Shown: positions 42,748 to 58,954 of the stretch, piece by piece | How the letters are laid out: every line of letters begins with the position of its first letter | Position numbering within the stretch: position 1 is the first letter of the stretch | From: an uncultured Candidatus Saccharibacteria bacterium | Lineage (GTDB): Bacteria > Patescibacteriota > WWE3 > UBA101185 > UBA10185 | Reading direction: 5' to 3' | Length of the DNA stretch: 64,000 nucleotides | NCBI GenBank assembly: GCA_964490125.1 | Contig: CAZBAJ010000001.1 | Coordinates: 3,573-67,572, forward strand | The notes under the pieces: model-generated | What the model saw: the letters and a program-made list of their open reading frames with translations, nothing else | Told to the model about the DNA's origin: nothing | The model's database searches: none | Translations under genes and position numbers: made by a program

Positions 42748-42783
42748 TTGTTTTTAGTTTAAAGCCTTTTATACTTTAATTCA
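42748..42783 (+). promoter_or_regulatory. promoter TTGTTT-16-TATACT for HelD-like gene, leaderless geometry
   Basis: -35 42748-53, -10 42770-75, ATG 42783; AT-rich junction DNA. Confidence 0.45.
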
Positions 42784-44795
42784 TGACCTACAAGGAAATA
42801 TATTCCTTTGAAAATAAGGTGCTTAAAGGTTTTATAGGTAGCATAGAAGAATTTATTAAAAATGAGGCTTTTGAGTTAGATAACATCTTAAAACAATATG
42901 AGAAGGAGTTTAGAAAGGTGAATGAAGGCTGGAATAATGAGGATAGAGCAGAAGCCATCTATTTAGCGAACGAACTGTTAAGACGAAACCTGTTTCAAGC
43001 TCGAACTTCTTATCTAGGTGCATTACGCACTACTGAAAATTCGCCATATTTTGCTCACATAGATATACTACACCAACCATCAGGAATGTTGGAGACCTTT
43101 TATTTAGGTAAGGTCGCTTATACTTCAAAAGATAAGGAAATAGCTATTACTGATTGGCGAAGCCCCGTAGCCTCACTGTATTACACTTACGCTTTTCCTA
43201 CCAAAAATGCAGAATACTCCGTTGTTGTAGATAAAGACCCCGTAGAGATAGAAAAATATGTCTGCGAGCTTGTGCTTAGAAGAGCAATAGACATTGAAAA
43301 CAAAAGGCTTGTTAATGTTTTTGATAGTGGGAATAAATTTATGCTTTCTAAAATTGAACAAAAAGCAGGCGGTTTGCTCGAGGATATTATTGAAACCATC
43401 CAGCTAGATCAAGATCTGATTATTCGCCTACCTTTATATAATAATATTATTGTCCAAGGTGTTGCAGGAAGCGGTAAAACAACCCTAGCTTTACACAGAG
43501 TTTCGTATCTTTTTTATAACTATGCCCGTTTACTTAAACCACAAAACACCTTGTTTCTGTCATCCTCAAAAACGCTTATAAACTATTTAGCCAAAAGCCT
43601 TCCTGGAATGGGTATAACTGATATTAATTGTTATTCCTTACGAGACTTTTTACTTAAAACTTTAGTAGAAAACGGTATTAAAGTTAAACCTCGTGCTCAA
43701 ATTCAGCCTATCGGAGACTTGGCTGAGTTTACAGATAAGTTTGATAACTTTTTGGATGCTACTGAGGTTAGATTGTTAGAAGATTTGGATTCAAGCTTAT
43801 TTGATAGATTTGCACTTAAAACTTACAACCTGAAACGCGCAAGGTCCCGCCTGACTTCAAAATCTTATATGGAAAAACTTGATACACTATCCAATGATTT
43901 AGCCGAGATGAATAAAGAGTTAAGATTGTATGATGACCCTGCAACGCAGTACGATGAGGCACGCATTCACGGTGTTAAAAAAACCATTAAGGTACTTAAA
44001 AACCAGCTCGATCCTGCTAAATTGTACAGCAATTTTTGTCTTTACGATTTGAGTTTAAATCACTTGTCTGCCTTATATCTATTGGCGGATAGATTAGGCG
44101 CCATTTCTTATAAGGATTACGATTTGGTCTTTGTGGATGAAGCTCAAGATTTTAATCCTCTACATTTAAGATGTATAAAAACACTCTCATCTAGGAATGT
44201 CTTTAATTTTTTTGGCGACTTAAATCAGGCAATTTACAGTAAAGATCACATTAAATCGTGGGACTGCATTTCTGATATGTATGGTATCAATAAATTGCAA
44301 CAATTTAGTCTTACCAGAAGCTACCGTTCAACTAAGAGCATAGTTTCTAAAGCCACGGATATATTAAGAGCAAAAGGAATTACTGATAATCTTCCTGAAC
44401 CCGTTTCTCGTACCGGAGAACCGACAATTGAACAAAGATTTGATCGTTTAGATAGCATGATGGCGACTCTTGTCGATGCTGTAAAACAGGTAAGAAAACA
44501 CAGAGCTAAGTCTATTGGCATCATCTGCTCGTCACAAAGTCAGGCTGATATTGTCAGCAGGCATTTTAGAGCTAAGGGGATGCAGTATTTTAGTATCACC
44601 GAAGGTTTCGACGATTACTCCAAATACGGCATTTTTATCGTAGCACCAAGCCTGGTTAAAGGGTTAGAATTTGACACCGTTTTTATTTTAGATGCCGGGG
44701 GCGGTGAGTTTGCTGATGTTGACGAGGGTCATTTTCGTAAATTTGTGGCAATGACGCGTGCAATGAGTAGCTTATACATATATAGCCTAAATTAA
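42783..44795 (+). CDS. UvrD-like SF1 helicase, HelD / helicase IV-like
   Basis: N-terminal domain with YFAHIDI and ITDWRSPVASLYY (HelD-type DWRAPIA.LYY motif); Walker A GVAGSGKTTLALHR; VFVDEAQDF; C-terminal RSYRST, VKGLEFD, MTRA motifs. Confidence 0.8.
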   Translation: MTYKEIYSFENKVLKGFIGSIEEFIKNEAFELDNILKQYEKEFRKVNEGWNNEDRAEAIYLANELLRRNLFQARTSYLGALRTTENSPYFAHIDILHQPSGMLETFYLGKVAYTSKDKEIAITDWRSPVASLYYTYAFPTKNAEYSVVVDKDPVEIEKYVCELVLRRAIDIENKRLVNVFDSGNKFMLSKIEQKAGGLLEDIIETIQLDQDLIIRLPLYNNIIVQGVAGSGKTTLALHRVSYLFYNYARLLKPQNTLFLSSSKTLINYLAKSLPGMGITDINCYSLRDFLLKTLVENGIKVKPRAQIQPIGDLAEFTDKFDNFLDATEVRLLEDLDSSLFDRFALKTYNLKRARSRLTSKSYMEKLDTLSNDLAEMNKELRLYDDPATQYDEARIHGVKKTIKVLKNQLDPAKLYSNFCLYDLSLNHLSALYLLADRLGAISYKDYDLVFVDEAQDFNPLHLRCIKTLSSRNVFNFFGDLNQAIYSKDHIKSWDCISDMYGINKLQQFSLTRSYRSTKSIVSKATDILRAKGITDNLPEPVSRTGEPTIEQRFDRLDSMMATLVDAVKQVRKHRAKSIGIICSSQSQADIVSRHFRAKGMQYFSITEGFDDYSKYGIFIVAPSLVKGLEFDTVFILDAGGGEFADVDEGHFRKFVAMTRAMSSLYIYSLN

Positions 44796-44878: not shown

Positions 44879-45172
44879 TTAAATTAGCTTTTGCGACGAT
44901 AACATTCGCGTAAGCTCTTGTCTTAATTGGGAGAAACATTTTTCCAGCTCAATAACCCTTTGGTTGAGCAATATTCTATTGTCATTAGACATTTCCGTGA
45001 AACTGACATTAAACTCATTAGCAATCTGTGCTAAGACCCTAACTGTGGGAATAGCTCGACCTGTTTCGTACGCGGAAACGCTTTTTCCGGAGATGCCTAC
45101 TTTTTGTCCAAAGCGCTCCTGCGATAAATTTAGACTACACCTTAAATACTTAAGTTGATCACAAACATGCAT
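44879..45172 (-). CDS. XRE-family helix-turn-helix transcriptional regulator
   Basis: LSQERFGQKVGISGKSVSAYETGRAIPTVRVLAQIANEFNVS Cro/C1-type HTH. Confidence 0.75.
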   Translation of the reverse strand: MHVCDQLKYLRCSLNLSQERFGQKVGISGKSVSAYETGRAIPTVRVLAQIANEFNVSFTEMSNDNRILLNQRVIELEKCFSQLRQELTRMLSSQKLI

Positions 45173-45292
45173 ATTAACCTTTCCGGACAGGAAATTCTAT
45201 TGAAACTAGATGTCAAGATGTTGTCACATCTCTTAGGATTAATTATATTGCATACACACTTGTTATTTCAATATGAAAGGAGGTGAAAAAAT

Positions 45293-45877
45293 ATGACAAC
45301 CAGAAAATATGCAATAGGTCTTATGTCGTTAGCAATAGTGGCGGTTGGACTTATGGGTGTGGCGTATGCAGCTTTTACTGACCAGTCTAAGTTTACAGGT
45401 TCTAGGTTTAGCATAGCTAGTGCGGATATAAAGCTTCTCAACGACTTAGCAGGTGGTACAGGTGTGTCAAATCTTGTGGATACAAAACCGGTGCCTTCTT
45501 ACGATAATATTTCTCCGGGTTGGGTTTCTGACTATCTTGTTAAGTTGTACAACAATGGGACGCAGGCGGTAACTCTTACATCTAGCATGGATTATCTTAC
45601 GACAAATGATCCGTCAACCATTAGAGAGGTTTTGTATATGGAGCCGTATGACTGGAATGATGCAGATAACGACGGAGTGTTGGATGACGGGGAACAGGGT
45701 GTTTCTTGGGGCAGAAAGGCGTTTACGGCGTGGAAGACTACCGGGTTTAACTTTGGGCAACTAGACGCGGGAGTTGTTAAGCCGTTGATTATGAGATTTT
45801 CCGTGGGGAATGTTACTAACGCTAAGATGGGCGCGGTTGGAATCTTTGATTTTATGTTTGATTCGGTTGGCATTTAG
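45293..45877 (+). CDS. secreted TasA/camelysin-like protein with SipW-cognate-class signal peptide
   Basis: signal peptide then AYAAFTDQSKFTGSRFSIASADIKL resembling the AAF[ND]D...F..G motif of TasA/CalY; strong SD AAAGGAGGTGA; followed by sipW-like gene. Confidence 0.6.
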   Translation: MTTRKYAIGLMSLAIVAVGLMGVAYAAFTDQSKFTGSRFSIASADIKLLNDLAGGTGVSNLVDTKPVPSYDNISPGWVSDYLVKLYNNGTQAVTLTSSMDYLTTNDPSTIREVLYMEPYDWNDADNDGVLDDGEQGVSWGRKAFTAWKTTGFNFGQLDAGVVKPLIMRFSVGNVTNAKMGAVGIFDFMFDSVGI

Positions 45878-46002: not shown

Positions 46003-46554
46003 ATGTCTAAATTGTTTTTAAAAACTTTTGTTGGATTAGTCGTATTGGGTGGATTGGTTTATTACAGCGTGCAAAATAATGTCCGACTATTTTTTGTTGT
46101 TACGGGTTCCATGGAACCTGTGATTCCTACAAAGTCGATTATTTTATCTAGAAAAATTTCTGGAGACACCGTAAAAGCAGGTGCGGTTATTGTTTTTAAC
46201 GATCAAGCTACTAAACATGTTACGGCGCACAGAGTTAAGGAGGTTATAGCGGAAGGTTTTGTAACCAAAGGCGATGCCAACGAGTATCAGGATCGTAGTT
46301 TAGTCCAGCCAGCTGAATTGTTGGGGCGGGTATTTTTTGTCGTCCCTATTGTTGACGCTGTAAGCGTTTTCACCCAAGTCGGACTATTAATACTGATCTT
46401 TATGCTAGGTGTTTTAGTACGGAGATTTTTGGTATGCTTAAAGCATGGTTTTTCCTGTCCGACCGCAACACTTAACGCGCTTTTTAGACTTAGTGTTTTT
46501 AGGCGCCCCAAGGCGACTTTTTGTAATAGGTCGACGGGTTTTGGCGCTTACTAA
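46003..46554 (+). CDS. signal peptidase I, archaeal/ER type (SipW-like)
   Basis: VVTGSMEP (Ser), AHRV (His), KGDAN boxes of SipW-type peptidases; N- and C-terminal TM helices. Confidence 0.8.
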   Translation: MSKLFLKTFVGLVVLGGLVYYSVQNNVRLFFVVTGSMEPVIPTKSIILSRKISGDTVKAGAVIVFNDQATKHVTAHRVKEVIAEGFVTKGDANEYQDRSLVQPAELLGRVFFVVPIVDAVSVFTQVGLLILIFMLGVLVRRFLVCLKHGFSCPTATLNALFRLSVFRRPKATFCNRSTGFGAY

Positions 46555-49000
46555 TTATGAGACTTCGTTTAGCCTGCATCTGCGGTTGATTTTAACGCCG
46601 TTGTACGGGGATTATACCAAAGCCGGTAGAGTCATTGGTTTGGTTTTTAGGTTGCTGGCAATTTTTTACGGCCTCTTTGTTTTATTGTTTTTGGGTTTGG
46701 TAGTTTTGGTGTCGCCGTTGCTTTGGTATTTTGCTTTGTTTGGCGTATTTTATGTATTTAGATTGTGGGCGGTACTGGGTTTTATAGCGTTTTTTGCCTT
46801 GTGGTGGAAGTATACGCAAAATAAACCGACAAAGTTGGGAGAATATCGTCCGTGGGTAGCTGATGTCGTCCAAAATATTAAAATTAGGGGGAATTTAGAG
46901 GTTAGGGATTTTATTACTTCCCCGGTGCTTGCGGACTTTTTTAGTCGGTTGGAACTTACCAAAACCGATTTTGCTAACGAGCTTACCAAACTTTACTCCT
47001 ATGAGGAGTGCGTTAGACAAATATCTACTTGGGAAATTAAAGCCAAAGACTACTTACCAAAATTTGAGTCACTTTTTATAGAACCGGAGCAGGTGTTTTT
47101 GGCAGTTTTGTCGACCTTACCTAATTTAGAAAGATTTATGGCTAAGTACAATTTAATACTTAGCGACTTTGAAGGTTGCGCCAAGTGGTTAATAGAGCGG
47201 CGCGACGATAAGGAACGGGCGCATGTTTGGCAGGACTATTACAAACTGCCGGTAATGGGCGGAATTGGTAAGGGATTAACGGGCAGAGTAACGCCGGATC
47301 TGGACTCGGTGTCCACGGATTTTACCCAGTTAGTCAAAAAGGGTTTGGTAGAAAAAACCTATTGGCGTAAAGAGGAAATCAAGCGCGTAGCGGATCTTTT
47401 GGGTGGGTCTAACAGGAATGTGTTGATTGTAGGCGCACCCGGTGCCGGCAAAACCGGCATTGTTAAAGGCATTGCTTGGAGCGTAATTAGAGGAACGCAG
47501 TTTGACCAGTTAAAGTTTAAACGGATTGTAAGTTTAGAGGTCGGCAAGGTTCTGGCGGGAACAAAAAGCGCCGGAGATGTGGCGGACAAGCTTAAAAAAG
47601 CGGTGGAGGACGCTTTGGGCGCGGGTGATGTTATAATTTTTGTGGACGACATTCACACGCTTATTGCCGGTTCCGCGGTTGAGGATACCAAAACCAGCTC
47701 TGCCTACACTGTTCTTACTAATTATCTGGCGGATGGTCGGTTGCAATTTATTGGCGCCACCAACATAGAAAATTATCGTAAATATATAGAACCAAACGGT
47801 TCGTTTGCTCAGCTGTTTCAAATTGTCGAGGTCCCCCCGTCGTCCAAAGAAGAAACCTTAGAAATAATAAAAGTTAAAGCGGAAATTTTGGAGCAACAGT
47901 TTAAAGTCAAAACTTCCTTTACTGCGCTTACCAAAATTGTGGAGCTGGGTGACAAGCTAATTCACGAGCGGGTTTTTCCGGACAAAGCGGTGGAGATTTT
48001 AAATAGGTGCGTTTCGCAGGTTGCAAAAAGTACGCACTTTGTAACCGTCGATTTGGTTTTGCAAACGCTTTCAGAGATTACGCATATTCCGGTGTCGGCG
48101 GTTACTAACGATGAGTCGCAAAAACTGCTAAATATAGAAATGGAGATGAAAAAGCGGGTTATCGGCCAGGACGACGCCATAAACATGATAGGTTCGGCGC
48201 TTAAACGGGCGCGGGCGGGTATTAGAAACGATAAAAAACCCATGGCAAGCTTTTTGTTTGTGGGAACAACGGGCGTGGGAAAAACGGAAACGGCAAAAAC
48301 CTTGGCGCGGGTGTATTTTGGTGACGAAAAGCTAATGATTCGGCTTGATATGAGTGAGTATCAGCAGGTTGACAGTATTGACAGGCTAATTGGCGCGCCC
48401 AACGGTTCCACTAAAGGTGTGTTGACGGAGGCGGTTAGAAGTCGCCCATTTGCCCTAATTCTGTTGGACGAAATTGAAAAGGCGCACCAAAACATACTGT
48501 TGGCTTTTTTGCAGGTGTTGGACGACGGCAGACTAACGGATTCTTCTGGCACAACGGTTGATTTTACCAATACCATTATAATAGCAACCAGCAATGTGGG
48601 GACCCGGTCAATTCAGGAGGTTTTTGGCAGAAACGGCACTTTTGAGGAAATGAAGGAAGTTGCTACAAAGGATGTCCGGGAGAAATTTGCCCCGGAGTTT
48701 TTAAATAGGTTTAACGGGATTATCGTATACAAGCCGCTTTCTATGGAATCGGTTCAAAAAATTGCGGACATCATGCTTGGTAGTGTAAGAAAAATGGCGG
48801 AGGAAAAAGGCATTAAAGTTAGTTTTAAACCGGAGCTTATGGGGGAACTTTTAAAGCGCGGTTATAGCCCGGAGTGGGGCGCCCGGCCCATGGCGCGGGT
48901 AATAGAAGAAAGCGTTATGAACTATCTGGCCATTAAAATTTTGGCAAAGGAGATTGTGGCAGGCGATTCGGTGGAGTCAGGGACGGAGGTTTTTAGCTAG
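46541..49000 (+). CDS. membrane-anchored Clp/Hsp100-like ATPase with two AAA+ modules
   Basis: N-terminal multi-TM region replaces Clp N-domain; NBD1 LIVGAPGAGKTGIVKGIA..IFVDDIH; NBD2 LFVGTTGVGKTETAKTLA..LLDEIEKAH; sensor EFLNRFNGIIVYKPLS. Start uncertain: no in-frame ATG after sipW stop, so TTG 46541 or 46586 is assumed; ORF-track ATG at 46445 overlaps sipW by 110 nt. Confidence 0.75.
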   Translation: MALTNYETSFSLHLRLILTPLYGDYTKAGRVIGLVFRLLAIFYGLFVLLFLGLVVLVSPLLWYFALFGVFYVFRLWAVLGFIAFFALWWKYTQNKPTKLGEYRPWVADVVQNIKIRGNLEVRDFITSPVLADFFSRLELTKTDFANELTKLYSYEECVRQISTWEIKAKDYLPKFESLFIEPEQVFLAVLSTLPNLERFMAKYNLILSDFEGCAKWLIERRDDKERAHVWQDYYKLPVMGGIGKGLTGRVTPDLDSVSTDFTQLVKKGLVEKTYWRKEEIKRVADLLGGSNRNVLIVGAPGAGKTGIVKGIAWSVIRGTQFDQLKFKRIVSLEVGKVLAGTKSAGDVADKLKKAVEDALGAGDVIIFVDDIHTLIAGSAVEDTKTSSAYTVLTNYLADGRLQFIGATNIENYRKYIEPNGSFAQLFQIVEVPPSSKEETLEIIKVKAEILEQQFKVKTSFTALTKIVELGDKLIHERVFPDKAVEILNRCVSQVAKSTHFVTVDLVLQTLSEITHIPVSAVTNDESQKLLNIEMEMKKRVIGQDDAINMIGSALKRARAGIRNDKKPMASFLFVGTTGVGKTETAKTLARVYFGDEKLMIRLDMSEYQQVDSIDRLIGAPNGSTKGVLTEAVRSRPFALILLDEIEKAHQNILLAFLQVLDDGRLTDSSGTTVDFTNTIIIATSNVGTRSIQEVFGRNGTFEEMKEVATKDVREKFAPEFLNRFNGIIVYKPLSMESVQKIADIMLGSVRKMAEEKGIKVSFKPELMGELLKRGYSPEWGARPMARVIEESVMNYLAIKILAKEIVAGDSVESGTEVFS

Positions 49001-49022
49001 TGTTTATTATATAATTACGACT

Positions 49023-49580
49023 ATGGGGGACGAAGCCATGAATACAAAAAACTATATTGAGGAACTTAGAGCAGAAATCGACCAAATCCCCAACGAATCC
49101 ATGCGACTTTGTATGCGGGATTATTTACAAGCGCGGGAGCAAACCAGAGATATTCTAGCATTGGTTCCGGAGGATTTGTTGGACTATAAAGTTGCGCCAG
49201 GTGAAGAAGTCCAATCCCTTAGGGAAAATTTTGCAGAACTTGCACGCGTGGAAGCTAGTTTAATTAGAGGTTTACAAAGTGGACGAAGGGTACACAGTGG
49301 CGGTCACAATGTCCTGCCCGAACTACCCAAGAAAGAAGAGATTTTAAACGCTTATGAAAAATTGGATCGTGAAATGTTTACTTTGCTAAAAAATCCAGCC
49401 TTTGATCCCAAAGATACCTTTATTTATGCTGGAGAAAATGGAACCGAGCAAACTCTTAGGAAAGGCGGATCAGTTTGGTATTTCTTTTATCACGAAATGA
49501 AGGAATTGGGGTCAATAAGGGCAAAGCTGGATGGTGTTGGAATAGAACCGCCAGAATCCTACAAAAAGGCTTGGGGTTAA
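49023..49580 (+). CDS. hypothetical protein (possibly DinB/helical-bundle-like)
   Basis: ORF directly after Clp-like gene; ATG 49023; no confident family assignment. Confidence 0.45.
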   Translation: MGDEAMNTKNYIEELRAEIDQIPNESMRLCMRDYLQAREQTRDILALVPEDLLDYKVAPGEEVQSLRENFAELARVEASLIRGLQSGRRVHSGGHNVLPELPKKEEILNAYEKLDREMFTLLKNPAFDPKDTFIYAGENGTEQTLRKGGSVWYFFYHEMKELGSIRAKLDGVGIEPPESYKKAWG

Positions 49581-49582
49581 TA

Positions 49583-50470
49583 CTACCCATGGATTATTCT
49601 AAACTTTCGGTTTGAGTTAAAAATTCTTACTAATTTTTCAAAATTTTCATCGGGGTTTTGCAGTAGGCGTGCTAGGTTGTCTATTTCTCGTAGGTCGTTT
49701 TCTTTTATTGTTGGGAATACTTTTAAAAAGGCCATATCTACGGTGTTAGTATAAATAGGCTCATTATTCATTAGGCAGTGAAAATCGTAAAAGAGTTCCC
49801 ATGCTATGACGACTAGTCCTTGCGTACCTCCACTATTTTGAAAATAACCCGGATTAACTTTGCCGCTCCTTACCCTAAGCCAAGCATCAGCCGAGAAATC
49901 AAATAAGTCTTTAGGTAAGTCGTAGGGGTCGAATTTAATATAAGGTTCTATGCTGACATCGACATCTATAGATATCCAGCGGCTTTCAACAATATTCCAA
50001 TACTGGGTTATCCAATGATCCCAACTGCACCCCTTCATATCTTCGTATTCGAAATAAGGAGCAAAACCCGATCTGACGCGAGCGGGAATCCCCCTTGTTT
50101 TTAGCATCGATGCCACAAGTATTGCTACATTTCTACAACTAACAATTAAGCTATTTTCTTCTGTACATTCTAAAGTTAGACCCCGTGGGTCTCTCCTAAA
50201 AAGCTCCGAAAGCATCGAAGATGTCGTTGTGAAAACATCGTCCTCTCTGCACCTGTACCAAGGTACTTTTGTCATATCGCCATAGCGCAGGTCTTTGTTG
50301 GTTTGGGTGTTTCCGATTTCCAGAGCGTGTGCGTCGATGACACTTTTTCTAATTAAGTATCCAATTTTCTCTATGTCACTCGTTGGCAAACTCTTTAGAT
50401 AATCGGCATAACAGCCGGGAAAGGTTGCGTGCGAGTATTTTGTGTAGTAATCCAAGATAGTTTGATTCAT
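49583..50470 (-). CDS. transglutaminase-like cysteine-protease-fold protein
   Basis: VSCRNVAILVASMLKTRGIPARVRSGF (Cys), SWDHW (His), downstream Asp: Cys-His-Asp core of transglutaminase-like superfamily. Confidence 0.65.
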   Translation of the reverse strand: MNQTILDYYTKYSHATFPGCYADYLKSLPTSDIEKIGYLIRKSVIDAHALEIGNTQTNKDLRYGDMTKVPWYRCREDDVFTTTSSMLSELFRRDPRGLTLECTEENSLIVSCRNVAILVASMLKTRGIPARVRSGFAPYFEYEDMKGCSWDHWITQYWNIVESRWISIDVDVSIEPYIKFDPYDLPKDLFDFSADAWLRVRSGKVNPGYFQNSGGTQGLVVIAWELFYDFHCLMNNEPIYTNTVDMAFLKVFPTIKENDLREIDNLARLLQNPDENFEKLVRIFNSNRKFRIIHG

Positions 50471-50507
50471 GGGTGAATATTACAACCGAAAAATTTTAAT
50501 TACAACT

Positions 50508-51305
50508 TCATTCAATCGGTAAGAAAATCTCAAAAACTTGTTGGGTTGTGTCTGCGTTTACTTTCCAATATATTTCAAAGTCGGAAACTTTATTTTTCAC
50601 TTTGATTCTGTTGATCCTGCAATATTTTTCCAACTCTTTCCAAAACAGTGAAAGCATTTCTCCAGCACCACTGTGTTTATAAGAAATCACCTTTCCTGGG
50701 CTAAAGGTCATATGTCGTACAACATTCTTAAACTCCGGTTTTATGGCGATATCTTTGTCACTAAAAACGCATATTTTAATGTGGCAATTTTTTGGACGAT
50801 AGCCCTGATCCTCAAAAACAGCCATTGTGGTTAAACCGTCGTGAGGTTTTTCGATCATATTTATTAGCTCGCTACAATACATGCCGATTTTTGAGTAGGC
50901 GCCTATTTTGTCGATGTAGTAAACGCTAAGAGGTTGAAATACCGAAATTTTAGGTTTGATCATGGTCCGATTTGTTTTAAGATTTTCCAAGAAATTATCA
51001 ATATTTTTTAAGTTAAATTCTAGAGTACTCATTTCCTTTAGTATTGTCGGGCGTTTTTCCTTAAATAGTTCAACCAATTTTCCATGATTATTTAGATACT
51101 CCTTTATTTCTTTTAGAGAAATACCTAGCGTTGTGAGTAGTAAAACCATCTGATAATCTAAAATCTGTCTTTGGGAATAATACCGAAACCCCCGCAAGTC
51201 GATCCTTTCCGGTTTTAGGACACCTTTTTGGTCGTAGAATAAAATCGTTCGTTTTGTTGTACAGGCGAGTTTTGCGAACTCGCCCGGTGTTATAAAAGCG
51301 TCCAT
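50508..51305 (-). CDS. MerR-family transcriptional regulator with C-terminal GyrI-like effector-binding domain (BmrR-like)
   Basis: N-terminal MerR HTH (ITPGEFAKLACTTKRTILFYDQKGVL), long coiled linker, about 150-aa C-terminal domain of GyrI-like size. Confidence 0.8.
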   Translation of the reverse strand: MDAFITPGEFAKLACTTKRTILFYDQKGVLKPERIDLRGFRYYSQRQILDYQMVLLLTTLGISLKEIKEYLNNHGKLVELFKEKRPTILKEMSTLEFNLKNIDNFLENLKTNRTMIKPKISVFQPLSVYYIDKIGAYSKIGMYCSELINMIEKPHDGLTTMAVFEDQGYRPKNCHIKICVFSDKDIAIKPEFKNVVRHMTFSPGKVISYKHSGAGEMLSLFWKELEKYCRINRIKVKNKVSDFEIYWKVNADTTQQVFEIFLPIE

Positions 51306-51307
51306 AC

Positions 51308-51345
51308 TTGACTATAACCTCGCGTTACACCTTATTATAGCATCC
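51308..51345 (+). promoter_or_regulatory. MerR-type promoter for the UvrA paralog: TTGACT - 19 bp - TATTAT
   Basis: TTGACT 51308-51313, TATTAT 51333-51338, 19-bp spacer, ATG at 51349; divergent MerR gene starts at 51305. Confidence 0.55.
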
Positions 51346-51348
51346 ATT

Positions 51349-53607
51349 ATGTCTAATATAGTTATAAAAGGAGCGCGCGAGCACAACCTTAAAGGTGTTG
51401 ATATAACGATACCTCGCAACAAGGTTGTGTGTTTTGTGGGTGTGTCGGGTAGCGGAAAGTCCACAATTGCCTTCGATATCGTCGCAAAAGAGGGGCAAAG
51501 GCAATATTTTGAAAGTTTGTCGGCTTATGCCCGCAGGTACTTGCAAAAGAGCAATCGTCCTGATATTGACGATATCAAGGGAATATCTTCCACAGTTATT
51601 ATTAGTCAAGACAGGCTTACCAAGAATCCGCGTTCGACTGTTGGTACTGTGACTGAAACTTACACCTACCTTAGGTTGTTGTACTCTAGAGTAGGTTGGC
51701 CTCCAATGGACTCTTCCAACTATTCGTTTAATCATCCCGACGGTTTTTGTCCAAGATGTAAGGGTCTAGGTAGGGCCATGGATGTGGACATAAATAAATT
51801 AGTCGATGTGAGTTTATCTCTTAACGAGGGGGCTATAAAATATAGCAACTGGCGAGTGAATAGTATGTATTGGAAGATTGTTAGAGAAAGCGGATATTTT
51901 GATATGGACAAAAAGCTTAAAGATTTTAGTGAAAGCGAAATGAACAAGTTGCTCTATTCCAAGAAAGAGACACTGGATGACAGGGTAGGAAACGGTGTAA
52001 TCCACCCAACCTATAAGGGTATAGTAACTCATCTGCTCGGGCGTGGTTCTAGTGCAGTTAGAAGTGTAAACGATGAGGAACTAAGCTATTTTAGTTATAT
52101 AGATTGCCCTTTGTGTCACGGTTGGAGAATAAGTCAAAAAGCTTTGGAGGTTAAGTTAAATGGATTGAATATCGGCGAAGTCGGTAATTTGCCTATCTAC
52201 GATTGTCTAAGTTTTGTGCAAAGTATTAAGCACCCGCATGCCGATGTAATTAAGCCCAGACTGGAACTCCAACTCCAGCATTTAATAAACGTGGGTGTAG
52301 GGTATTTATCACTAAACAGGACTACGGATACTCTGTCGGGTGGAGAGTCGCAAAGAATAAAAATGGCAAGACAGCTCGGTTCCGACTTGACAGAGACAAT
52401 TTATGTTTTGGACGAGCCAACTGCGGGTCTGCATCCTCGCGATGTCGACAAGGTTATTGAGAACTTAAGAAAATTAAAGGACGGCGGAAACACTGTTTTA
52501 ATAGTTGAGCATGATCCGGAGGTTATAAAGTCGGCTGACTACATCATTGAAGTTGGACCTGGCGGTGGAAAAAAGGGTGGAAACATTGTTGCAACGGGTT
52601 CTTTAACCGAGATTAAAGCCAATCCAACATCTATAACAGCCAAGTACATAAATGGCAGTGACAAGATACGGTTGCCTGAAGAATATAGAGAAAGAAACGG
52701 TAATATAAGTATTGCAAATGCTTCAACCCACAACCTAAAAAATATAAGCGTTGACATTCCGACAGGCGTGTTGGTGGCGTTAACCGGTGTTTCAGGTAGT
52801 GGGAAGAGCTCGTTGGTGGAGGAAATTTGTAGGCAGTACCAGCACAAAGTCACGCTTGTTGATCAGAGCGCTGTGGGTGCTAACCAAAGAGGCTGTATTG
52901 CTACCTATACGGGAACCTTTGACATTATCAGAAAGCTCTTTGCTCAAGAAAATAAAGTCAGCGTTAGTTTATTTAGCTACAACAGTAGCGGTGCTTGTGA
53001 AGACTGCAAAGGTTTAGGTCATATGGATGTTGATATGAATTTTTTAGGTGACATCAAGATTAAGTGTCCCAAGTGTAATGGGAAAAGGTATAAGCAGGAA
53101 GTATTGAAGTATTTATATAAAGGTAAGAGCATAGATCGGGTTTTAGAAAGTACAGTTGAGGAAGCGCTAGAGTTTTTTGATCAAAAAGAAATAAAAGTTA
53201 AGCTTGCAATGTTGGCAGAAGTCGGACTAGATTATATAGAAATTGGTCAGTCTTTGGACACCTTATCGGGCGGGGAATCTCAAAGATTAAAGTTAGCCAG
53301 TCGTTTGCAAGCAAAGGGTGAGTTTTATATCTTGGACGAGCCCACTTCCGGCCTTCACCTTGCTGATGTAGAAAAGTTACTCAAACTTTTGAATCGCCTG
53401 GTTGACAATGGGAACACTGTTTTGGTAGTCGAGCATAATTTAAAGATTATTGTGTCCAGCGATTGGGTTATCGATTTAGGACCCGATGGTGGCGATAAAG
53501 GCGGGGAACTGATCGTCCAAGGAACACCAAAAGATATTTTAAGTTGTGACCAGTCGTATACCGCAAAGTATTTAAGGGGAACGGTAAGTTTGGAAAATAA
53601 AGCTTAA
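51349..53607 (+). CDS. UvrA paralog (class II, short; DrrC/UvrA2-like)
   Basis: two ABC ATPase modules (GVSGSGKST twice), four CxxC zinc modules, ABC signature LSGGESQR twice; 752 aa, lacking UvrB-binding/insertion domains. Confidence 0.85.
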   Translation: MSNIVIKGAREHNLKGVDITIPRNKVVCFVGVSGSGKSTIAFDIVAKEGQRQYFESLSAYARRYLQKSNRPDIDDIKGISSTVIISQDRLTKNPRSTVGTVTETYTYLRLLYSRVGWPPMDSSNYSFNHPDGFCPRCKGLGRAMDVDINKLVDVSLSLNEGAIKYSNWRVNSMYWKIVRESGYFDMDKKLKDFSESEMNKLLYSKKETLDDRVGNGVIHPTYKGIVTHLLGRGSSAVRSVNDEELSYFSYIDCPLCHGWRISQKALEVKLNGLNIGEVGNLPIYDCLSFVQSIKHPHADVIKPRLELQLQHLINVGVGYLSLNRTTDTLSGGESQRIKMARQLGSDLTETIYVLDEPTAGLHPRDVDKVIENLRKLKDGGNTVLIVEHDPEVIKSADYIIEVGPGGGKKGGNIVATGSLTEIKANPTSITAKYINGSDKIRLPEEYRERNGNISIANASTHNLKNISVDIPTGVLVALTGVSGSGKSSLVEEICRQYQHKVTLVDQSAVGANQRGCIATYTGTFDIIRKLFAQENKVSVSLFSYNSSGACEDCKGLGHMDVDMNFLGDIKIKCPKCNGKRYKQEVLKYLYKGKSIDRVLESTVEEALEFFDQKEIKVKLAMLAEVGLDYIEIGQSLDTLSGGESQRLKLASRLQAKGEFYILDEPTSGLHLADVEKLLKLLNRLVDNGNTVLVVEHNLKIIVSSDWVIDLGPDGGDKGGELIVQGTPKDILSCDQSYTAKYLRGTVSLENKA

Positions 53608-53674
53608 CCACTAGTTTCGTACTCTCAAAAACCCAGGTCACAATAATGATAAAATTATCTACACTAAGAAAAAT

Positions 53675-54574
53675 TTGGCAGTAATTATGGTCCCAAAAAT
53701 AACCGAACTCCAAGCCAAGTCGATTTTTACCAAATCCGGATTGCCTGGGTCGGATTGGGTAATTAATCCGTACAACGGTTGTTTATTTGGTTGCATGTAT
53801 TGTTACGCGGCGCAAATTGCTAGGTGGAAACATCCTAATGAGCAGTGGGGTACCTATTTAGATGTCAAACTAAAAGCCCCGGAGTTGCTAAAACAAGAGC
53901 TTGCCAAGTTGGAAAAACGCCATAAAACCAAGGATTTTGGCTCGGTATTTTTTAGCTCTGTTACGGATCCGTATGTGGGCGTGGAGGCAAAATACCGGCT
54001 AACCCGGCAGTGTTTAGAGGTTTTGGCGGACTTTGGATACGCGGGTGCGGTTTCGGTTCAGACCAAGTCGCCCCTAGTTACGCGGGATATTGATATGCTT
54101 GCCCGCCTAAAAAATGCTTCTGTAGGTTTTACTATTACTTCTTTGGACGACAAAATCTCCGCTTTTTTGGAGGTAATGGCGCCACCTATAAGTCATCGGT
54201 TGGATGCGTTAAAAAAGTTGCACGACGCAGGGATTTCCACCTACGCATTTGTCGGTCCTATTTTGCCGCATTTTCTCGTCGACCAGCAGATTTTAAAGAT
54301 ACTGTTAGATGAGTTGCAGGAAGTTGGCGTGACCGAGGTTTGGTTTGAGCATATAAATTTAAGTCCAAAAATTAAGGAACGCCTGTACGACTATTTGCGT
54401 AAAAAGGCTCCGGAGTTGATTGAGGTTTTTGACCAAGCTAATACACAGGAGTATCGTAATCAGTTGGACGACTTTATTGTTGCGGAAATGAAATCCCGTG
54501 GGTTGACGCTAGGGCTTAACAAAGTGATCCACCACCGGAGTTTGCCAAAGAAAGACCTTATTAATCTTGCTTGA
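53675..54574 (+). CDS. radical SAM protein, SplB / DNA-repair-photolyase-like (COG1533)
   Basis: CxxxCxxC cluster in PYNGCLFGCMYCYA near N-terminus; about 300 aa TIM-barrel size. Confidence 0.75.
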   Translation: MAVIMVPKITELQAKSIFTKSGLPGSDWVINPYNGCLFGCMYCYAAQIARWKHPNEQWGTYLDVKLKAPELLKQELAKLEKRHKTKDFGSVFFSSVTDPYVGVEAKYRLTRQCLEVLADFGYAGAVSVQTKSPLVTRDIDMLARLKNASVGFTITSLDDKISAFLEVMAPPISHRLDALKKLHDAGISTYAFVGPILPHFLVDQQILKILLDELQEVGVTEVWFEHINLSPKIKERLYDYLRKKAPELIEVFDQANTQEYRNQLDDFIVAEMKSRGLTLGLNKVIHHRSLPKKDLINLA

Positions 54575-54664
54575 TTTTTTCTAGGGGATTTGGTAACATA
54601 CGGCAGATCGAAAGATTAAGAATTCGGTGGCTAAAGGGCTCCTTTACGGAGTCCTTTGTGCATC

Positions 54665-55408
54665 TTAAGGAGTTATTTCCTTTCTCCAACAGATAAAATC
54701 CTTAATATCGAAGATGTCGAAGATGAATAAACCCTCCTTTTTAAGCTCGTTTAGTTCGGCCGAAATTCTTCCAGCCGTCCCAAAAACTACAGCGTTTCTA
54801 TTGCTTTTTAAGATTCTTCTAAGCGGGTCGTAAAAGTCGCTGTCTCCACTCCACAATATAAAATTTTGGGTTTTTCCTTTTTCGCTTTCCAAGAGCATGT
54901 CCACCGCCATCTCGACATCAAAGTTGCATTTTCTCTCCTCGATAAAATATTCTCCCCTTCTGTTCATATCTACAAAACAACCATTTAGGTATTTGATTGT
55001 TGGTGAGGTATATCTTCTAAGTAAGGCTGGGCTTATAAATTGGCGAAGTAACTCTGTTGAAGTCGGTACGATCCTTCTTGCGTCTATTTTTAATCTCATT
55101 ATCTTTACGGGTTTTGTTTGCAATGTGTAACCCAGTCTATTTATGTCATATATTTCTTTTTGCGCGTTAGGGTCGTTTTTAAGGTAGCCGTTGTAAAGGC
55201 TAACCGATTTAACGGTATCGAAAGAGTCCAAGAACTGTTTTAGCCTCTTTAATTCAATATGCCAACCAAGCTTTGTACTCCAAGGTCTTACATTAGCATA
55301 GTCAATATAAACCGCGGTAGGTTGGGCAAACACGGCTTCTAGTTTTGTTATTACATTGGGATGTAAATTAGCAAGCACCTTTATTTTGTCGGTTTTTGGT
55401 GTAAACAT
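54665..55408 (-). CDS. NYN-domain (LabA-like PIN-fold) protein
   Basis: AVYIDYANV..., FDVEMAVDML, WSGDSDFYDP acidic motifs. Confidence 0.7.
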   Translation of the reverse strand: MFTPKTDKIKVLANLHPNVITKLEAVFAQPTAVYIDYANVRPWSTKLGWHIELKRLKQFLDSFDTVKSVSLYNGYLKNDPNAQKEIYDINRLGYTLQTKPVKIMRLKIDARRIVPTSTELLRQFISPALLRRYTSPTIKYLNGCFVDMNRRGEYFIEERKCNFDVEMAVDMLLESEKGKTQNFILWSGDSDFYDPLRRILKSNRNAVVFGTAGRISAELNELKKEGLFIFDIFDIKDFICWRKEITP

Positions 55409-55601
55409 AAATGCTCAGAAGTGTTCAGGTCATACTATCAATATTTGTCCAAAAGTCAATACATATTTATTGTTAGGTACCCATTTATTCGGGCGACTTG
55501 TGAACTAATGCCCTTTCCTTCAATTCAAATAAACGCCTTTCTCTAAACCGTTTTAGTACTATTTTAATGCGCTATATCCCTAGTCGTACTATAATACCCA
55601 C

Positions 55602-56777
55602 ATGTTAATAGAACTCTCCCCCGACCAAGATCTTGCCCGCAAGTTTATTATGGATTGGTACAACTCAAAAAGTCGCCCGCCGTACATTACTTTGGGAGGC
55701 TATGCGGGCACGGGCAAGACCACGCTCATTACTTATTTACGGCGCCAGCTCAAAGTCGACCATAAAAAGCTAAAAGTGGCGTTTTGTGCTTATACGGGCA
55801 AGGCCACGCAGGTTTTAAAACGCAAGCTGGCGGAGCATAACGCTGTGCATTTTGGCGACGAAGTGCGGACGATCCACTCGCTTATTTACAAAGCTATAAC
55901 GGACGAACATGGGTTTATTATTGGTTGGCGACGGCGGGACAGCCTGGACACGGAGCCTAATTTACTAATTGTAGACGAAGCAAGTATGGTTGATCAGGAA
56001 ATTTGGCAGGACTTACTTTCTTACCATGTACCTATTATAGCGGTGGGCGACCATGGTCAGCTTCCCCCCGTGTCGGGTGACTTTAACTTAATGCAAAACC
56101 CGCACTTGAAGTTGGAAAAAATCCATCGCCAGGCGGAGGAAAATCCAATTATTAAACTTTCTGTTATAGCACGGGAAACCGGTTTGATACCGCACGGTGA
56201 CTACGGCGACCATGTTTTTAAAGCAACGCCTGCTGATGCGTCCACCATGCTAGAAAACATTTTTTGTAACTTTTCTTCCGACCAGTTAGTTTTATGCGGT
56301 TATAATTCAACCAGGGTTAAGCTAAACGCCACAATAAGGAACGCCTTGGGTTTTGAAACGCCGGAACCGTACCCGGGTGACAGAGTGATTTGTCTGCGCA
56401 ACAATAGGCAAAAAGAGGTTTACAACGGGATGTTGGGGTACCTAGAGTATATTAATAGGCTGTCTAAAAATAAATACCTAATTGAGGTCGCCATGGATTC
56501 TTATGAAGAAGGTCATACCTATTCCGGAGTTGTTTCCGCGGAGCAGTTTGGCGCGCAAAAAACACTAAATAACATTTTAGGGTACGCAAAAACTAAGGAG
56601 ATGGACTTGTTTGACTTTGGGTACGCGCTTACAGTTCACAAAGCGCAGGGGAGTCAGGCAAAAAAGGTGGTGGTGTTTGAGGAGCGCTTTTCCCGCGACA
56701 CTGAAGAGGACTGGCGCCGTTGGCTGTACACCGCTGTCACCCGCGCGGAGGAGGAACTTTTAATTGTAGGGAATTAA
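55602..56777 (+). CDS. RecD/Dda-like SF1B DNA helicase
   Basis: GGYAGTGKTTL Walker A, LLIVDEASMV Walker B, C-terminal ...VTRAEEELLIV. Confidence 0.8.
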   Translation: MLIELSPDQDLARKFIMDWYNSKSRPPYITLGGYAGTGKTTLITYLRRQLKVDHKKLKVAFCAYTGKATQVLKRKLAEHNAVHFGDEVRTIHSLIYKAITDEHGFIIGWRRRDSLDTEPNLLIVDEASMVDQEIWQDLLSYHVPIIAVGDHGQLPPVSGDFNLMQNPHLKLEKIHRQAEENPIIKLSVIARETGLIPHGDYGDHVFKATPADASTMLENIFCNFSSDQLVLCGYNSTRVKLNATIRNALGFETPEPYPGDRVICLRNNRQKEVYNGMLGYLEYINRLSKNKYLIEVAMDSYEEGHTYSGVVSAEQFGAQKTLNNILGYAKTKEMDLFDFGYALTVHKAQGSQAKKVVVFEERFSRDTEEDWRRWLYTAVTRAEEELLIVGN

Positions 56778-57311
56778 AACGCCTTCGGTTTAAATCCCGG
56801 TTTGTTTAGTATTTTTATACCGTTCCGTTTCTTGGTTATGGCAAATAATCCCTCTTTTTCAATTTCGCCCGCCCGAGCGTTTGTAAGTTTTTCGCTGGCT
56901 AAGGCGCCGTACACTTTGGTATTAATTAATAAATGGCTGTGAGAACTTTTAAAACGGGGGATGATATTTTCAACCAAGTCCACGACATCATTGTAGCTTG
57001 CTGTTTTTACTACTTTTATTACCACAGCATTGACTGGATTGTGCGCTACAACATCATAAATAAAACCGTCAATATCGGTGAGGTTTTTAATAATAATGTC
57101 AAACCTTGTCTTACGAAGTCTTTTCCTATGCTGGAGGTAAAAAATATAGACGGTCTTTAAAGCCAATCTCCTCATCGGGAAAATTCTCTTTGTACAGTTT
57201 TTGAAATTCTCTGTCGATTTGTCGCTCAAGTCGTTTTTCTTCACGGGTATCGGCGATAAGTTGCTTATACTTTGCAAATAACTCATCTTTGGTTAGATTC
57301 TCTATCTTCAT
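56774..57311 (-). pseudogene. hypothetical gene split into two overlapping frames at an A6/T6 tract (possible frameshift or sequencing error)
   Basis: ORFs 57126..57311 (61 aa) and 56774..57286 (170 aa, N-terminal 55 aa look non-protein-like) overlap in different frames around homopolymer 57139..57144. Confidence 0.3.
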
Positions 57312-57339
57312 TCGTAAATTTTAACAAAATTCTTGGAAG

Positions 57340-57801
57340 TTGGTCTATAATAAGGCTATGGAAAGTTTAGTCGACGAATTAAGGTTGGCGCGAACGGCTG
57401 TTATTGAGGCAGTTTCTAAAGTCGCCAGGAATAAACGAGAGGTTGTGTTTTTAGGCGACTGGACATTAAAGGATTTAATCGCGCATTTGACGGGCTGGGC
57501 TAATTATCAGCTTGAGGTTATTAAAGATGTCCAAACAGGCAGGATTCCCAAAGAACCCGGAAGTATTGACGGGTTTAATGAAAAATCTACTAGAAAAAGG
57601 GCGACGCAGTCTTGGGAAAAAACATATTCAGAATTTTTGGACGCTAGCCAAAAACTTATCGACACCTATCAGAAGTTACCAAACGATTTGTGGGATACCT
57701 TGCTTTGGGAAGACAAAAAGACGACTTTGAAAAAGTTTATTAATATTGAGATACGACATTACAAGAAAACACATTTGCCACAAATTTTAAAACTGGTATA
57801 G
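57340..57801 (+). CDS. ClbS/DfsB-family (DUF1706) four-helix-bundle protein
   Basis: WTLKDLIAHLTGW matches the W[ST][VL]KD[VL][IL]AHL..W hallmark of ClbS-like proteins. Confidence 0.6.
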   Translation: MVYNKAMESLVDELRLARTAVIEAVSKVARNKREVVFLGDWTLKDLIAHLTGWANYQLEVIKDVQTGRIPKEPGSIDGFNEKSTRKRATQSWEKTYSEFLDASQKLIDTYQKLPNDLWDTLLWEDKKTTLKKFINIEIRHYKKTHLPQILKLV

Positions 57802-57820
57802 CGTTTTGCAATCCCCGCTA

Positions 57821-58492: not shown

Positions 58493-58571
58493 AAGTGTAG
58501 TTTACTACACTAGAAGGCAGGTTGCGGACAGTATACAATTGCCGTACTAGTAAGATAGAGAGGAGGATACC

Positions 58572-58952
58572 ATGATTATCAAATTGTTTGCTGTGTGTTT
58601 ATTGGTAGGCGACTTTGAGAAGTCGCTTAACTTTTATAAGGATGTTCTGGGATTGAAGGTAAAGTCGCAGGAGGGAGACAGCTTTGCAAATTTTGAGCTT
58701 GAAGGTACGGAACTGGCGATTTTCCAGAAAGATGACGCTACAGCCATGTTCCCCAAAAAATATATGGGTAATGGTGGTGGTTCTGTTTTGGGTTTTCAGG
58801 TTGGGGAACTGGATAAATATTGTCGTGAACTTAGTCAAAAAGGTGTAGAGACAATTGAAGGACCAAAAACCACTCCGTGGGGACAAAAAGTGGCGTATTT
58901 TAGGGATCCGGATAATAATATTTGGGAGGTTTCTGAACCTTTCGAGGAATAA
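58572..58952 (+). CDS. VOC-family protein (glyoxalase/bleomycin-resistance fold)
   Basis: 126 aa, paired beta-alpha-beta-beta-beta modules, ...FRDPDNNIWEV C-terminal motif. Confidence 0.8.
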   Translation: MIIKLFAVCLLVGDFEKSLNFYKDVLGLKVKSQEGDSFANFELEGTELAIFQKDDATAMFPKKYMGNGGGSVLGFQVGELDKYCRELSQKGVETIEGPKTTPWGQKVAYFRDPDNNIWEVSEPFEE

Positions 58953-58954
58953 GT

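Follow-up and report, generated by a model that had tools for sequence, protein, structure and literature searches.

A Clp/Hsp100 two-ring AAA+ ATPase with an N-terminal membrane module and non-aromatic pore loops in WWE3 bacteria

Introduction

We analysed a window of 64,000 nucleotides (nt) from an uncultured Candidatus Saccharibacteria bacterium of the WWE3 lineage of Patescibacteriota (GenBank assembly GCA_964490125.1, contig CAZBAJ010000001.1, positions 3,573 to 67,572 of the forward strand), and within it a gene for a Clp/Hsp100 two-ring AAA+ ATPase that begins with a membrane module. An original prediction, made by a model that read the letters of the window, had drawn attention to this gene. 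Clp/Hsp100 proteins are the standard example of proteins that thread substrates with conserved tyrosines in the pore loops. Their subfamilies are defined by the partner to which they couple, the IGF loop serving for ClpP and the M-domain for Hsp70. To our knowledge, all Clp/Hsp100 unfoldases studied grip the substrate through the pore-loop tyrosines.

Results

The gene and its start codon

The gene (Table 1) is carried on the + strand and ends at 49000, as the original prediction had it and as the list of open reading frames (ORFs) confirms. An in-frame TAA lies one codon ahead of the opening of the frame, and the frame has its first start codon, an ATG, at 46445. The prediction had offered a choice between a TTG start at 46541 and a 110-nt overlap with the upstream sipW ORF, whose last 36 codons lie within the Clp gene; the overlap stands and the TTG does not. 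The 32 residues that a start at 46541 would cut off, MVFPVRPQHLTRFLDLVFLGAPRRLFVIGRRV, are conserved in more than 60 homologues, with F13 and P22 at least 90% conserved in the family consensus. Relative to the related locus L001 (86% identity), the nucleotide differences in the N-terminal part fall at third positions and are synonymous in the Clp frame. For these two reasons we place the start at the ATG and reject the downstream TTG/GTG candidates (46493 and 46541, the latter lying 96 nt beyond the ATG). The more distantly related locus L003 has a peptidase gene that ends just past its C-terminal transmembrane helix, 12 nt before the Clp start; because there is no overlap there, the overlap in the window is best seen as a local extension of sipW that poses no problem for the Clp start. 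About 85 full-length homologues align over 96–100% of the protein at 37–97% identity.

Table 1 Features of the membrane Clp gene, its protein and the adjacent genes (positions in the window; aa, amino acids of the Clp-like protein unless a neighbour is named; AF2, AlphaFold2)
Feature	Protein positions (aa)	Coordinates (nt)	Strand	Basis or remark
Whole Clp-like gene		46445..49000	+	851 aa; ATG start, TAG stop; ORF list
Gene parts in order: membrane module, divergent Clp_N, D1, D2		46445..49000	+	
Conserved cytoplasmic part of membrane module	1-64	46445..46636	+	Conservation, AF2
Hydrophobic membrane segment	66-121	46640..46807	+	Hydropathy, AF2, conservation
Divergent Clp N-domain	136-257	46850..47215	+	hhalign, AF2
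Gly-rich linker WQxDYxxPxMGGIGKGMTGRVTPxLDSVSxDFT	262-294	47228..47326	+	Conservation; family-specific
D1 AAA+ module and lid	326-550	47420..48094	+	Pfam AAA aa 326-441, AAA_lid_9 aa 467-550
D1 Walker A GAPGAGKT		47432-47455	+	
D1 pore loop AGTKSAGDV		47555-47581	+	Without Tyr
D1 Walker B IIFVDDIH		47633-47656	+	Glu to Asp
D1 Arg-finger position FAQLFQ		47804-47821	+	RR to AQ
D2 AAA+ module and D2-small	598-844	48236..48976	+	Pfam AAA_2, ClpB_D2-small
D2 Walker A GTTGVGKT		48263-48286	+	
D2 pore loop GAPNGSTKG		48392-48418	+	Shortened, non-aromatic
D2 Walker B LILLDEIEKAH		48455-48487	+	
D2 sensor-1 ATSN		48584-48595	+	
Region equivalent to ClpA/ClpC ClpP-docking IG[FL] loop		48590..48688	+	33 aa, without the tripeptide
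D2 Arg finger PEFLNRF		48692-48712	+	
D2 sensor-2 GARPMAR		48878-48898	+	
SipW-type (archaeal/endoplasmic reticulum-type) signal peptidase I		46003..46554	+	183 aa; TIGR02228 71.1 bits against a cutoff of 51.85
TasA/camelysin-like secreted fibre-subunit candidate		45293..45877	+	194 aa; signal peptide ending AYAAFTD
Divergent XRE/HTH_3 regulator gene		44879..45172	-	Pfam HTH_3 3e-14; same position in L001-L005

A two-ring core without an M-domain or a ClpP-docking loop

All Pfam domain matches in the AAA+ core are above the gathering thresholds, including AAA_2 (aa 598–757, 3e-51) and ClpB_D2-small (aa 765–844, 9e-20) in D2. An AF2 model built from 62 family sequences has a mean predicted local distance difference test score (pLDDT) of 85.5 and a predicted TM score (pTM) of 0.73. 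It superimposes by Foldseek on ClpC, ClpC1 and ClpB protomers taken from cryo-electron microscopy hexamers with TM scores of 0.83–0.88 and a root-mean-square deviation (rmsd) of 3.4–3.7 Å over about 570 columns. In a phmmer search of the PDB, the best sequence score overall was that of Thermus thermophilus ClpB (3e-124), with Staphylococcus aureus ClpC at 1e-122 and the less similar Escherichia coli ClpA at about 1e-95. The assignment to the Clp/Hsp100 two-ring AAA+ ATPases is solid because Pfam, phmmer and the superposition all lead to it, and the two pairs of Pfam domains (AAA with AAA_lid_9, AAA_2 with ClpB_D2-small) agree with the class named in the original prediction.

The two Walker A motifs are 277 aa apart, compared with 279 aa in ClpA, about 337 aa in ClpC and 397–402 aa in ClpB at the loci fetched for comparison. 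Alignments to PDB entries skip the M-domains, jumping from 394 to 508 in ClpB and from 442 to 476 in ClpC. The ClpA-like spacing and the lack of a long ClpB M-domain had thus been read correctly at the outset. The same holds for the missing ClpP-docking loop. The stretch from sensor-1 to the PEF of the arginine finger begins SNVGTRSIQEVFGRNGTFEEM and contains no [ILVMFA]G[FLM] tripeptide in its 33 residues, and among 80 family members a single one shows such a tripeptide there, at another position. The corresponding region measures 45–50 aa with a GF in the fetched ClpC loci and 38 aa with a VGF in ClpA.

Pore loops and ATPase motifs of D1 and D2

Neither pore loop has its canonical form. The D1 loop reads AGTKSAGDVADKL where ClpB and ClpC have AGAKYRGEFEERL, a change from KYRGEFE to K-S-A-G-D-V-A. 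The D2 loop reads GAPNGST----KGVLTE against GAPPGYVGYEEGGQLTE in ClpB and ClpC, with a deletion of four residues, so that GAPPGYVGYEEGG of the canonical loop becomes GAPNGSTK-G. An aromatic residue is missing from the pore-loop window in 78 of 80 family sequences for D1 and in 76 of 80 for D2. KYRG and GYVG are mostly gone in members from outside WWE3 as well, where the loop lengths vary.

The P-loop of D1 is intact, with G330, G333, G335 and K336 invariant. The double arginine finger of D1 (ERRFQ) is reduced to one arginine in 52 of the 80 sequences, which keep the Walker B glutamate. The clade that contains the protein studied here (17 of 80) has DD instead of DE in Walker B, and the remaining arginine is replaced by glutamine in 16 and by glycine in one; parcubacterial members have D1 motifs that are still more degenerate (LED, VQD). 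Judged by these motifs, D1 is degenerate throughout the family and would be catalytically dead in this clade. The Walker A, Walker B (LLDEIEKAH), sensor-1 (TSN), arginine finger and sensor-2 (GARP) motifs of D2 are nearly invariant across the 80 sequences, and by the same measure D2 keeps all its ATPase motifs, including the trans-acting arginine finger. The original prediction had called the protein a stand-alone membrane unfoldase. A ClpP-independent membrane protein agrees with our results, but the word unfoldase is doubtful, as the pore aromatics are gone and D1 is degenerate. A tblastn search with an E. coli ClpP query found no ClpP in the window, a result that covers these 64 kb and is uninformative for the genome.

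The membrane module and the Clp N-domain

The first part of the protein is a membrane module of about 125 aa, an extra unit placed in front of the Clp N-domain that ties the protein to the membrane. It opens with a long amphipathic helix in the AF2 model (aa 7–40) and carries a family motif, PL(Y/F)GDY(T/S)xxGRxIGFxFR, at aa 52–69 (core at nt 46598–46630). P52, G61 and R69 are invariant, and conservation is at least 90% at F13, P22, N37, D56, R62 and G65. The hydrophobic string quoted in the original prediction as a membrane anchor is present at aa 66–121, with a Kyte–Doolittle mean over 19 aa of up to 2.95. The prediction had spoken of about 100 aa of hydrophobic helices; the hydrophobic residues number about 56 and follow a conserved, non-hydrophobic segment of 65 aa. 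Helices were assigned by DSSP in the AF2 model at aa 7–40, 42–47, 59–105 and 108–124, and the hydrophobic stretch has two almost invariant residues, P91 and W94, near its centre. Both flanks of this stretch are rich in lysine and arginine (10 K/R against 3 D/E in aa 1–76, and KYTQNKPTK after it), and therefore both of its ends should be cytoplasmic. Profile searches, which also covered small stand-alone proteins, gave no significant Pfam match and no PDB match for the module. A relation to PF07332 was not accepted, as the matches were below threshold and came from only 5 of 34 members.

The Clp N-domain had been described as replaced by the hydrophobic helices; in our analysis it is retained in divergent form, with the membrane part ahead of it. 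A profile of aa 130–300 from 75 family members was compared with a canonical ClpC N-domain profile, and aa 151–300 matched it by hhalign with a probability of 93.6% (E 2e-7). Precomputed PF02861 matches are present in seven homologues, and the AF2 model has a helical domain at aa 136–257 with a pLDDT of about 88–94. These three results together led us to regard the N-domain as kept. The canonical A..A....V.TEHLLLG motif is recognisable in the family as A..YA...YVE.EHLFLA, and a Pfam scan of the protein itself gave no direct Clp_N match. The glycine-rich linker between the N-domain and D1 is specific to the family and nearly invariant. W262, G273, G280, T283, L286, D292 and T294 are invariant in 62 sequences, the preceding phenylalanine also belongs to the pattern (FWQxDY...), and distant members have a related GGxNRxW...TPxLD motif.

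The module as a separate gene and the breadth of the family

A profile of the module (aa 1–132, 34 sequences, with the protein studied here as the first) was searched against 1.84 billion cluster representatives and matched 537 at E ≤ 1e-3 and 134 at E ≤ 1e-10. The best 150 matches include 92 proteins of less than 160 aa and 26 fusions of 800–900 aa. Two stand-alone modules could be placed on contigs, one in a Minisyncoccia metagenome-assembled genome (MAG; L006) and one on a metagenome contig (L007), in both of which a module gene of 110–113 aa ends 3–8 nt before a Clp-like gene of about 830 aa. The two-ring protein of these two loci has two N-terminal hydrophobic helices of its own, a degenerate D1 and a short, non-aromatic D2 loop. 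We ran a hidden Markov model (HMM) of the module against all ORFs of 88 fetched loci, and 36 were positive, all of them Patescibacteria-type cassettes. At 30 Patescibacteria loci outside WWE3 the module is a separate upstream ORF of about 110–150 aa on the same strand, directly before the membrane Clp gene; they include Moranii-, Magasanik-, Kerfeld-, Uhr- and Falkowbacteria, Paceibacterota, Saccharibacteria, Dojkabacteria and others. In WWE3 it is in the same ORF as the Clp domains at six of six loci. Canonical ClpC, ClpB and ClpA loci in the 88-locus set (Streptomyces, Chloroflexota, Bacteroidota and others) gave no module match. This pattern of fusion and fission, of the Rosetta-stone kind, argues that module and ATPase function together and would act as one unit. 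Because some of the fused representatives of 800–900 aa have D2 loops of another shape, the fusion may extend beyond WWE3.

From the D2 modules of 34 sequences we built a neighbour-joining tree with 100 bootstraps. It placed the membrane-anchored Patescibacteria proteins in one clade (85/100) and recovered the fused WWE3 proteins as a clade as well (100/100). As the family does not group with ClpA in this tree, the layout without an M-domain is probably the product of a secondary deletion. NCBIfam models of known Clp subfamilies all scored well below their cutoffs, with ClpB TIGR03346 at 501.1 against 1232.1, ClpA TIGR02639 at 464.3 against 993.15 and NF008263 at 348.2 against 1350, ClpV/TssH at 407 against 885, ClpK at 402 against 1900 and ClpG at 401 against 1900. 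An identity as ClpV of a type VI secretion system or as ClpK/ClpG was rejected on these low scores and for want of a matching gene context. The protein has the traits found across the family, namely the PL(Y/F)GDY(T/S)xxGR module, a Walker A spacing of 270–280 aa, a loop without the ClpP tripeptide and a degenerate D1 pore loop. It is highly probable, as are the structural statements above, that the protein is part of a branch of the Hsp100/Clp family that has no name and is confined to Patescibacteria.

A profile scan of genome contigs returned, among the matches listed, many canonical ClpB and ClpC loci and one WWE3 genome; these serve as controls and make a poor taxonomic census. One locus (L024) holds a canonical ClpB gene (28–2664, − strand, 878 aa, two Pfam Clp_N domains, long M-domain spacing) head-to-head with a cassette of module and membrane Clp. 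Since ClpB adjoins the cassette there, the family is an addition to ClpB and not its substitute, at least in L024. Two further loci (L061, L067) have a gene of about 879 aa at the same position that is of the same Clp cluster as the L024 ClpB, by cluster membership only. Several members from Paceibacterota, Magasanikbacteria and other lineages outside WWE3 (L009 4229.., L010 3347.., L029 3236..) carry a DnaJ-type double CxxCxGxG motif ahead of the transmembrane helices, and this zinc-finger motif is missing from the fused WWE3 proteins.

Some of the assemblies carry labels at odds with their gene content. MAGs titled 'uncultured Gammaproteobacteria' (L014, L017, L019, L023, L061, L067) have the Patescibacteria-type membrane Clp gene, the module gene precedes it in all of them except L017, and in L023 the setting is mraZ-rsmH-ftsL. 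A fragment labelled 'Bathyarchaeia' (P0020) is 84% identical to the protein studied here. These bins are probably mislabelled.

Gene neighbourhood

Five WWE3 loci (45–86% identity) share one gene order, with the ribosomal and polymerase genes S13-S11-S4-rpoA-L17-L13-S9, a divergent HTH_3 gene, in some cases RadC, a secreted protein of about 195 aa, the SipW-type peptidase, the membrane Clp and prfA; sipW is missing from L002. The gene for the secreted protein is kept directly upstream in all WWE3 loci examined. We regard its product as a TasA-like candidate on several counts. PF12389 (Peptidase_M73/camelysin) matched one of its 24 homologues at 8e-6, with none in the protein itself, and another homologue had been named 'SipW-like signal peptide' by the Joint Genome Institute. 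Its AF2 model (pLDDT 80.8) superimposed best on the TasA fibre 8aur_A (TM score normalised to the query 0.49, rmsd 4.3 Å, E 2e-4); the donor-strand pilins FimA and AbpA also matched, FimA-type proteins with a better E-value than 8aur. Promoter-like sites face each other between the HTH and TasA-like genes (45221–45249 on +, 45271–45242 on −). In the scan as a whole, promoter- and terminator-like sites were no more frequent than in shuffled sequences, and the operon structure is therefore read from spacing and overlap only.

The neighbours of the Clp gene recall the Bacillus sinR / tapA-sipW-tasA locus, in that an XRE-type HTH gene stands divergent from TasA-like and SipW-type genes, and the likeness suggests that WWE3 bacteria may make TasA-like extracellular fibres. 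The two loci also differ. TapA is missing here, the TasA-like protein, at 194 aa, is the shorter one and is linked to Peptidase_M73 only through one homologue, and an Hsp100-type gene follows that has no equivalent in the Bacillus locus.

In other lineages the cassette has a different setting. A Glycos_transf_4 (MraY/WecA-like) gene is downstream of the Clp gene at 14 of about 30 loci outside WWE3, and mraZ and rsmH are upstream of the module gene at six loci, with a small FtsL-like membrane protein in between at five of the six (confirmed by Pfam). In these loci, mostly from ABY1/Parcubacteria, the cassette lies inside a division and cell-wall cluster, between ftsL and mraY.

Other features of the window

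A UvrD/Rep-like helicase gene (42783–44795, +, 670 aa) separates the ribosomal S9 gene from the HTH gene. Because L001–L003 have no gene at that site, it is another lineage-specific insertion, besides a cluster of repair-type genes on the other side of the Clp gene. This cluster (49000–59950) surrounds a UvrA-like ABC ATPase gene (51349–53607, +) and includes DinB-family, MerR-like, radical SAM, RecD2-like and OGG-like genes. The UvrA-like protein has 752 aa, about 190 aa fewer than canonical UvrA, and matched TIGR00630 with 812 bits in three stretches. The cluster looks like an inserted island, as L002 and L003 lack it in the interval from the Clp gene to prfA. Its DinB-family ORF (48954–49580, +) would, with the listed TTG as its start, share 47 nt with the 3′ end of the Clp gene; in-frame ATGs at 49023 and 49038 abolish the overlap and are more likely starts. 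In L001, the closest of the long relatives, the Clp gene is followed by a gene (10518–12203) for a 561-aa protein that has no Pfam match and ends in an HExxH region (...LLHEMAHGIH...), and the matching position in the window holds the DinB/repair island instead.

At the other end of the window, a gene at 2554–3678 (+) encodes a 374-aa protein that matches the Lon AAA+ module alone (TIGR00763 positions 255–572; 346 bits against a cutoff of 608), without the N-domain and without the S16 protease domain. Equivalents of 357–372 aa (AAA_2 and Lon_lid) are present in the WWE3 relatives L002 and L003.

Discussion

Relation to known systems

Among characterised proteins, ClpC of S. aureus, Bacillus subtilis and Mycobacterium tuberculosis (ClpC1) resembles ours in the two-ring protomer, in the identity over the AAA core (36–39%) and in a Clp_N-type N-domain. 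It differs in having a half-length M-domain, which is regulated by MecA/McsB, a ClpP loop and pore-loop tyrosines in both rings, all of which are lacking here; our protein has a catalytically degenerate D1 and an added membrane module. ClpB/Hsp104 shares the D2-small domain and a short, ClpP-independent loop after sensor-1, but has pore tyrosines and a coiled-coil M-domain of about 115 aa (DnaK coupling in ClpB). ClpA has the same layout, with a D1–D2 spacing of 279–281 aa and one uninterrupted alignment, yet it has the IGL loop and the KYRG/GYVG loops that our protein lacks.

The anchored arrangement has precedents outside the Clp proteins. FtsH, Msp1/ATAD1 and Bcs1 use an N-terminal transmembrane anchor to hold their AAA+ ring on the cytoplasmic side of a membrane, and their clients are membrane proteins. 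They are single-ring, classical-clade AAA proteins; FtsH adds a protease domain, and the pore loops of Msp1 and FtsH are aromatic. Our protein has a membrane-anchored AAA+ ring in common with them, but it is of the two-ring Clp type and has no sequence relation to them beyond the AAA+ fold. Pfam and NCBIfam scans found no peptidase domain (M41 metalloprotease) in it, and hence it is not of the FtsH type. The torsins with LAP1/LULL1 offer a further comparison, being Clp/Hsp100-related, located at the membrane, devoid of aromatic pore-loop residues and dependent on a membrane-protein partner. They are eukaryotic, single-ring and luminal, and their arginine finger is supplied by the partner, whereas D2 of our protein has its own. 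Here, too, the partner module lacks an AAA-like fold, being a membrane protein that is small and helical.

A proposed membrane-bound remodelling ring

We favour, with moderate confidence, a reading in which the protein forms a ring on the cytoplasmic side of the membrane that remodels its clients with D2 as the motor and needs neither ClpP nor DnaK; the functional part of this reading is tentative. A hexameric ring would be held flat against the cytoplasmic membrane face by 12 or more transmembrane helices. Its D1 tier would be a nucleotide-binding or nucleotide-stabilised scaffold and its D2 tier the sole motor. A silent tier is known from another two-tier AAA+ protein, NSF, in which it is D2. 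The ring would work without ClpP and without coupling to DnaK. Membrane-associated clients might be captured by the N-domain and the glycine-rich linker, in other lineages perhaps with the help of the DnaJ-type zinc finger, and then remodelled or extracted. Such action would probably be short-range or low-grip pulling, or the prying of subunits, rather than processive unfolding, an idea we prefer because the pore loops are non-aromatic, shortened and variable. The client pool would be cell-envelope biogenesis, since the gene context points there, with the SipW-processed TasA-like fibre protein in WWE3 and the products of the division and cell-wall cluster elsewhere. More speculatively, and in our view unlikely as it stands, the small membrane protein and the Hsp100 double ring could form a two-component membrane machine of Patescibacteria whose D2 alone drives a non-threading envelope or division task, for example prying apart or inserting envelope-assembly complexes.

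Several observations count against the remodelling ring as we have drawn it. A tyrosine or phenylalanine is kept in the D2 loop of a few relatives (L011, GAPPGYSG; P0191, P0206), and the loss of pore aromatics is thus not universal in the wider family; non-aromatic loops, moreover, might still translocate a polypeptide. The segment at aa 66–121 may cross the membrane twice or may form three hydrophobic helices, one of them re-entrant, and the oligomeric state and the substrate are ones that we infer. Both gene contexts are envelope-related, but each could be lineage-wide synteny without functional meaning, and the WWE3 loci are syntenic all the way from the ribosomal genes to prfA.

The main rival is a membrane-tethered, ClpB-like disaggregase or extractase that threads polypeptides through its non-aromatic loops and acts in general quality control in the manner of Msp1 or of the ATPase half of FtsH, clearing membrane and secretory proteins that are aggregated or mis-inserted. 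The intact D2 motor, the retained substrate-binding N-domain and the location at the membrane all suit such a protein, as do the D2-loop aromatic residue of some relatives and the zinc finger of others, which suggests binding of unfolded chains. It fits poorly with the near-complete lack of pore-loop aromatics in both rings (78 and 76 of the 80 family members), and with a D2 loop that is four residues shorter and varies across lineages, unlike a conserved gripping element. There is also no M-domain for hand-over from Hsp70, and a canonical ClpB coexists in at least one lineage. We consider this rival a serious one, though unlikely to be correct. An ordinary ClpC/ClpA-type unfoldase that feeds ClpP through an unrecognised docking element could appeal to an overall identity of 35–39% and a common fold with the ClpC of ClpCP complexes, and to relatives labelled 'ATP-dependent Clp protease ATP-binding subunit ClpC' in the databases. 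We judge it very improbable, given a docking-loop region 12–17 residues shorter than in the fetched ClpC proteins, a single chance [ILV]G[FL] match in 80 sequences, a TIGR02639 ClpA score of less than half its cutoff (464 against 993) and the separate clade formed by the family.

Hardly more credible is a dedicated factor for the TasA-like/SipW system of WWE3, one that would, for instance, keep the fibre subunit export-competent or pass it to Sec/SipW. The tasA-like gene is directly upstream at five of five WWE3 loci, and sipW overlaps or abuts the Clp gene with no convincing terminator-like site between them. The same ATPase family, however, occurs at 30 other Patescibacteria loci with neither TasA nor SipW as a neighbour, L002 has no sipW, and the adjacency may be historical, as the whole WWE3 region is syntenic. 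That the N-terminal extension is an artefact of assembly or annotation, in which an upstream membrane gene was joined through a frameshift or a lost stop, might be supposed from the two parts being separate genes in most Patescibacteria. More than 60 independent WWE3 sequences, which come from different samples and reach down to 45% identity, carry the fusion in frame, with no stop between the parts, a conserved junction and full bootstrap support for the fused clade, and we regard an artefact as next to impossible.

Implications

The kind of protein, an Hsp100/Clp AAA+ ATPase, is well known; the module-anchored variant with a silent D1 that is found throughout Patescibacteria has no representative in Pfam, NCBIfam or the PDB. 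A search of open-access full-text literature found nothing on membrane-anchored or pore-tyrosine-less bacterial Hsp100 proteins, and this subset of the literature is no proof of novelty. The current labels 'ClpC', 'ClpB' and 'AAA family ATPase' overstate what is known of these proteins and could mislead reconstructions of metabolism and proteostasis.

Across a large and poorly understood radiation, a whole branch of Hsp100 proteins is without the pore tyrosines, the IGF loop and the M-domain and has instead a dedicated membrane partner, whose functional link to the ATPase is indicated by gene fusion and fission. Should the family prove active, it would show another way in which the Clp scaffold performs ATP-driven work at a membrane, and it would give a handle on the envelope and division biology of Patescibacteria, whose cell biology is almost unknown. 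If the two-component, non-threading machine proved true, it would be a new mechanistic class within Clp/Hsp100 and possibly a lineage-defining invention of these ultra-small bacteria.

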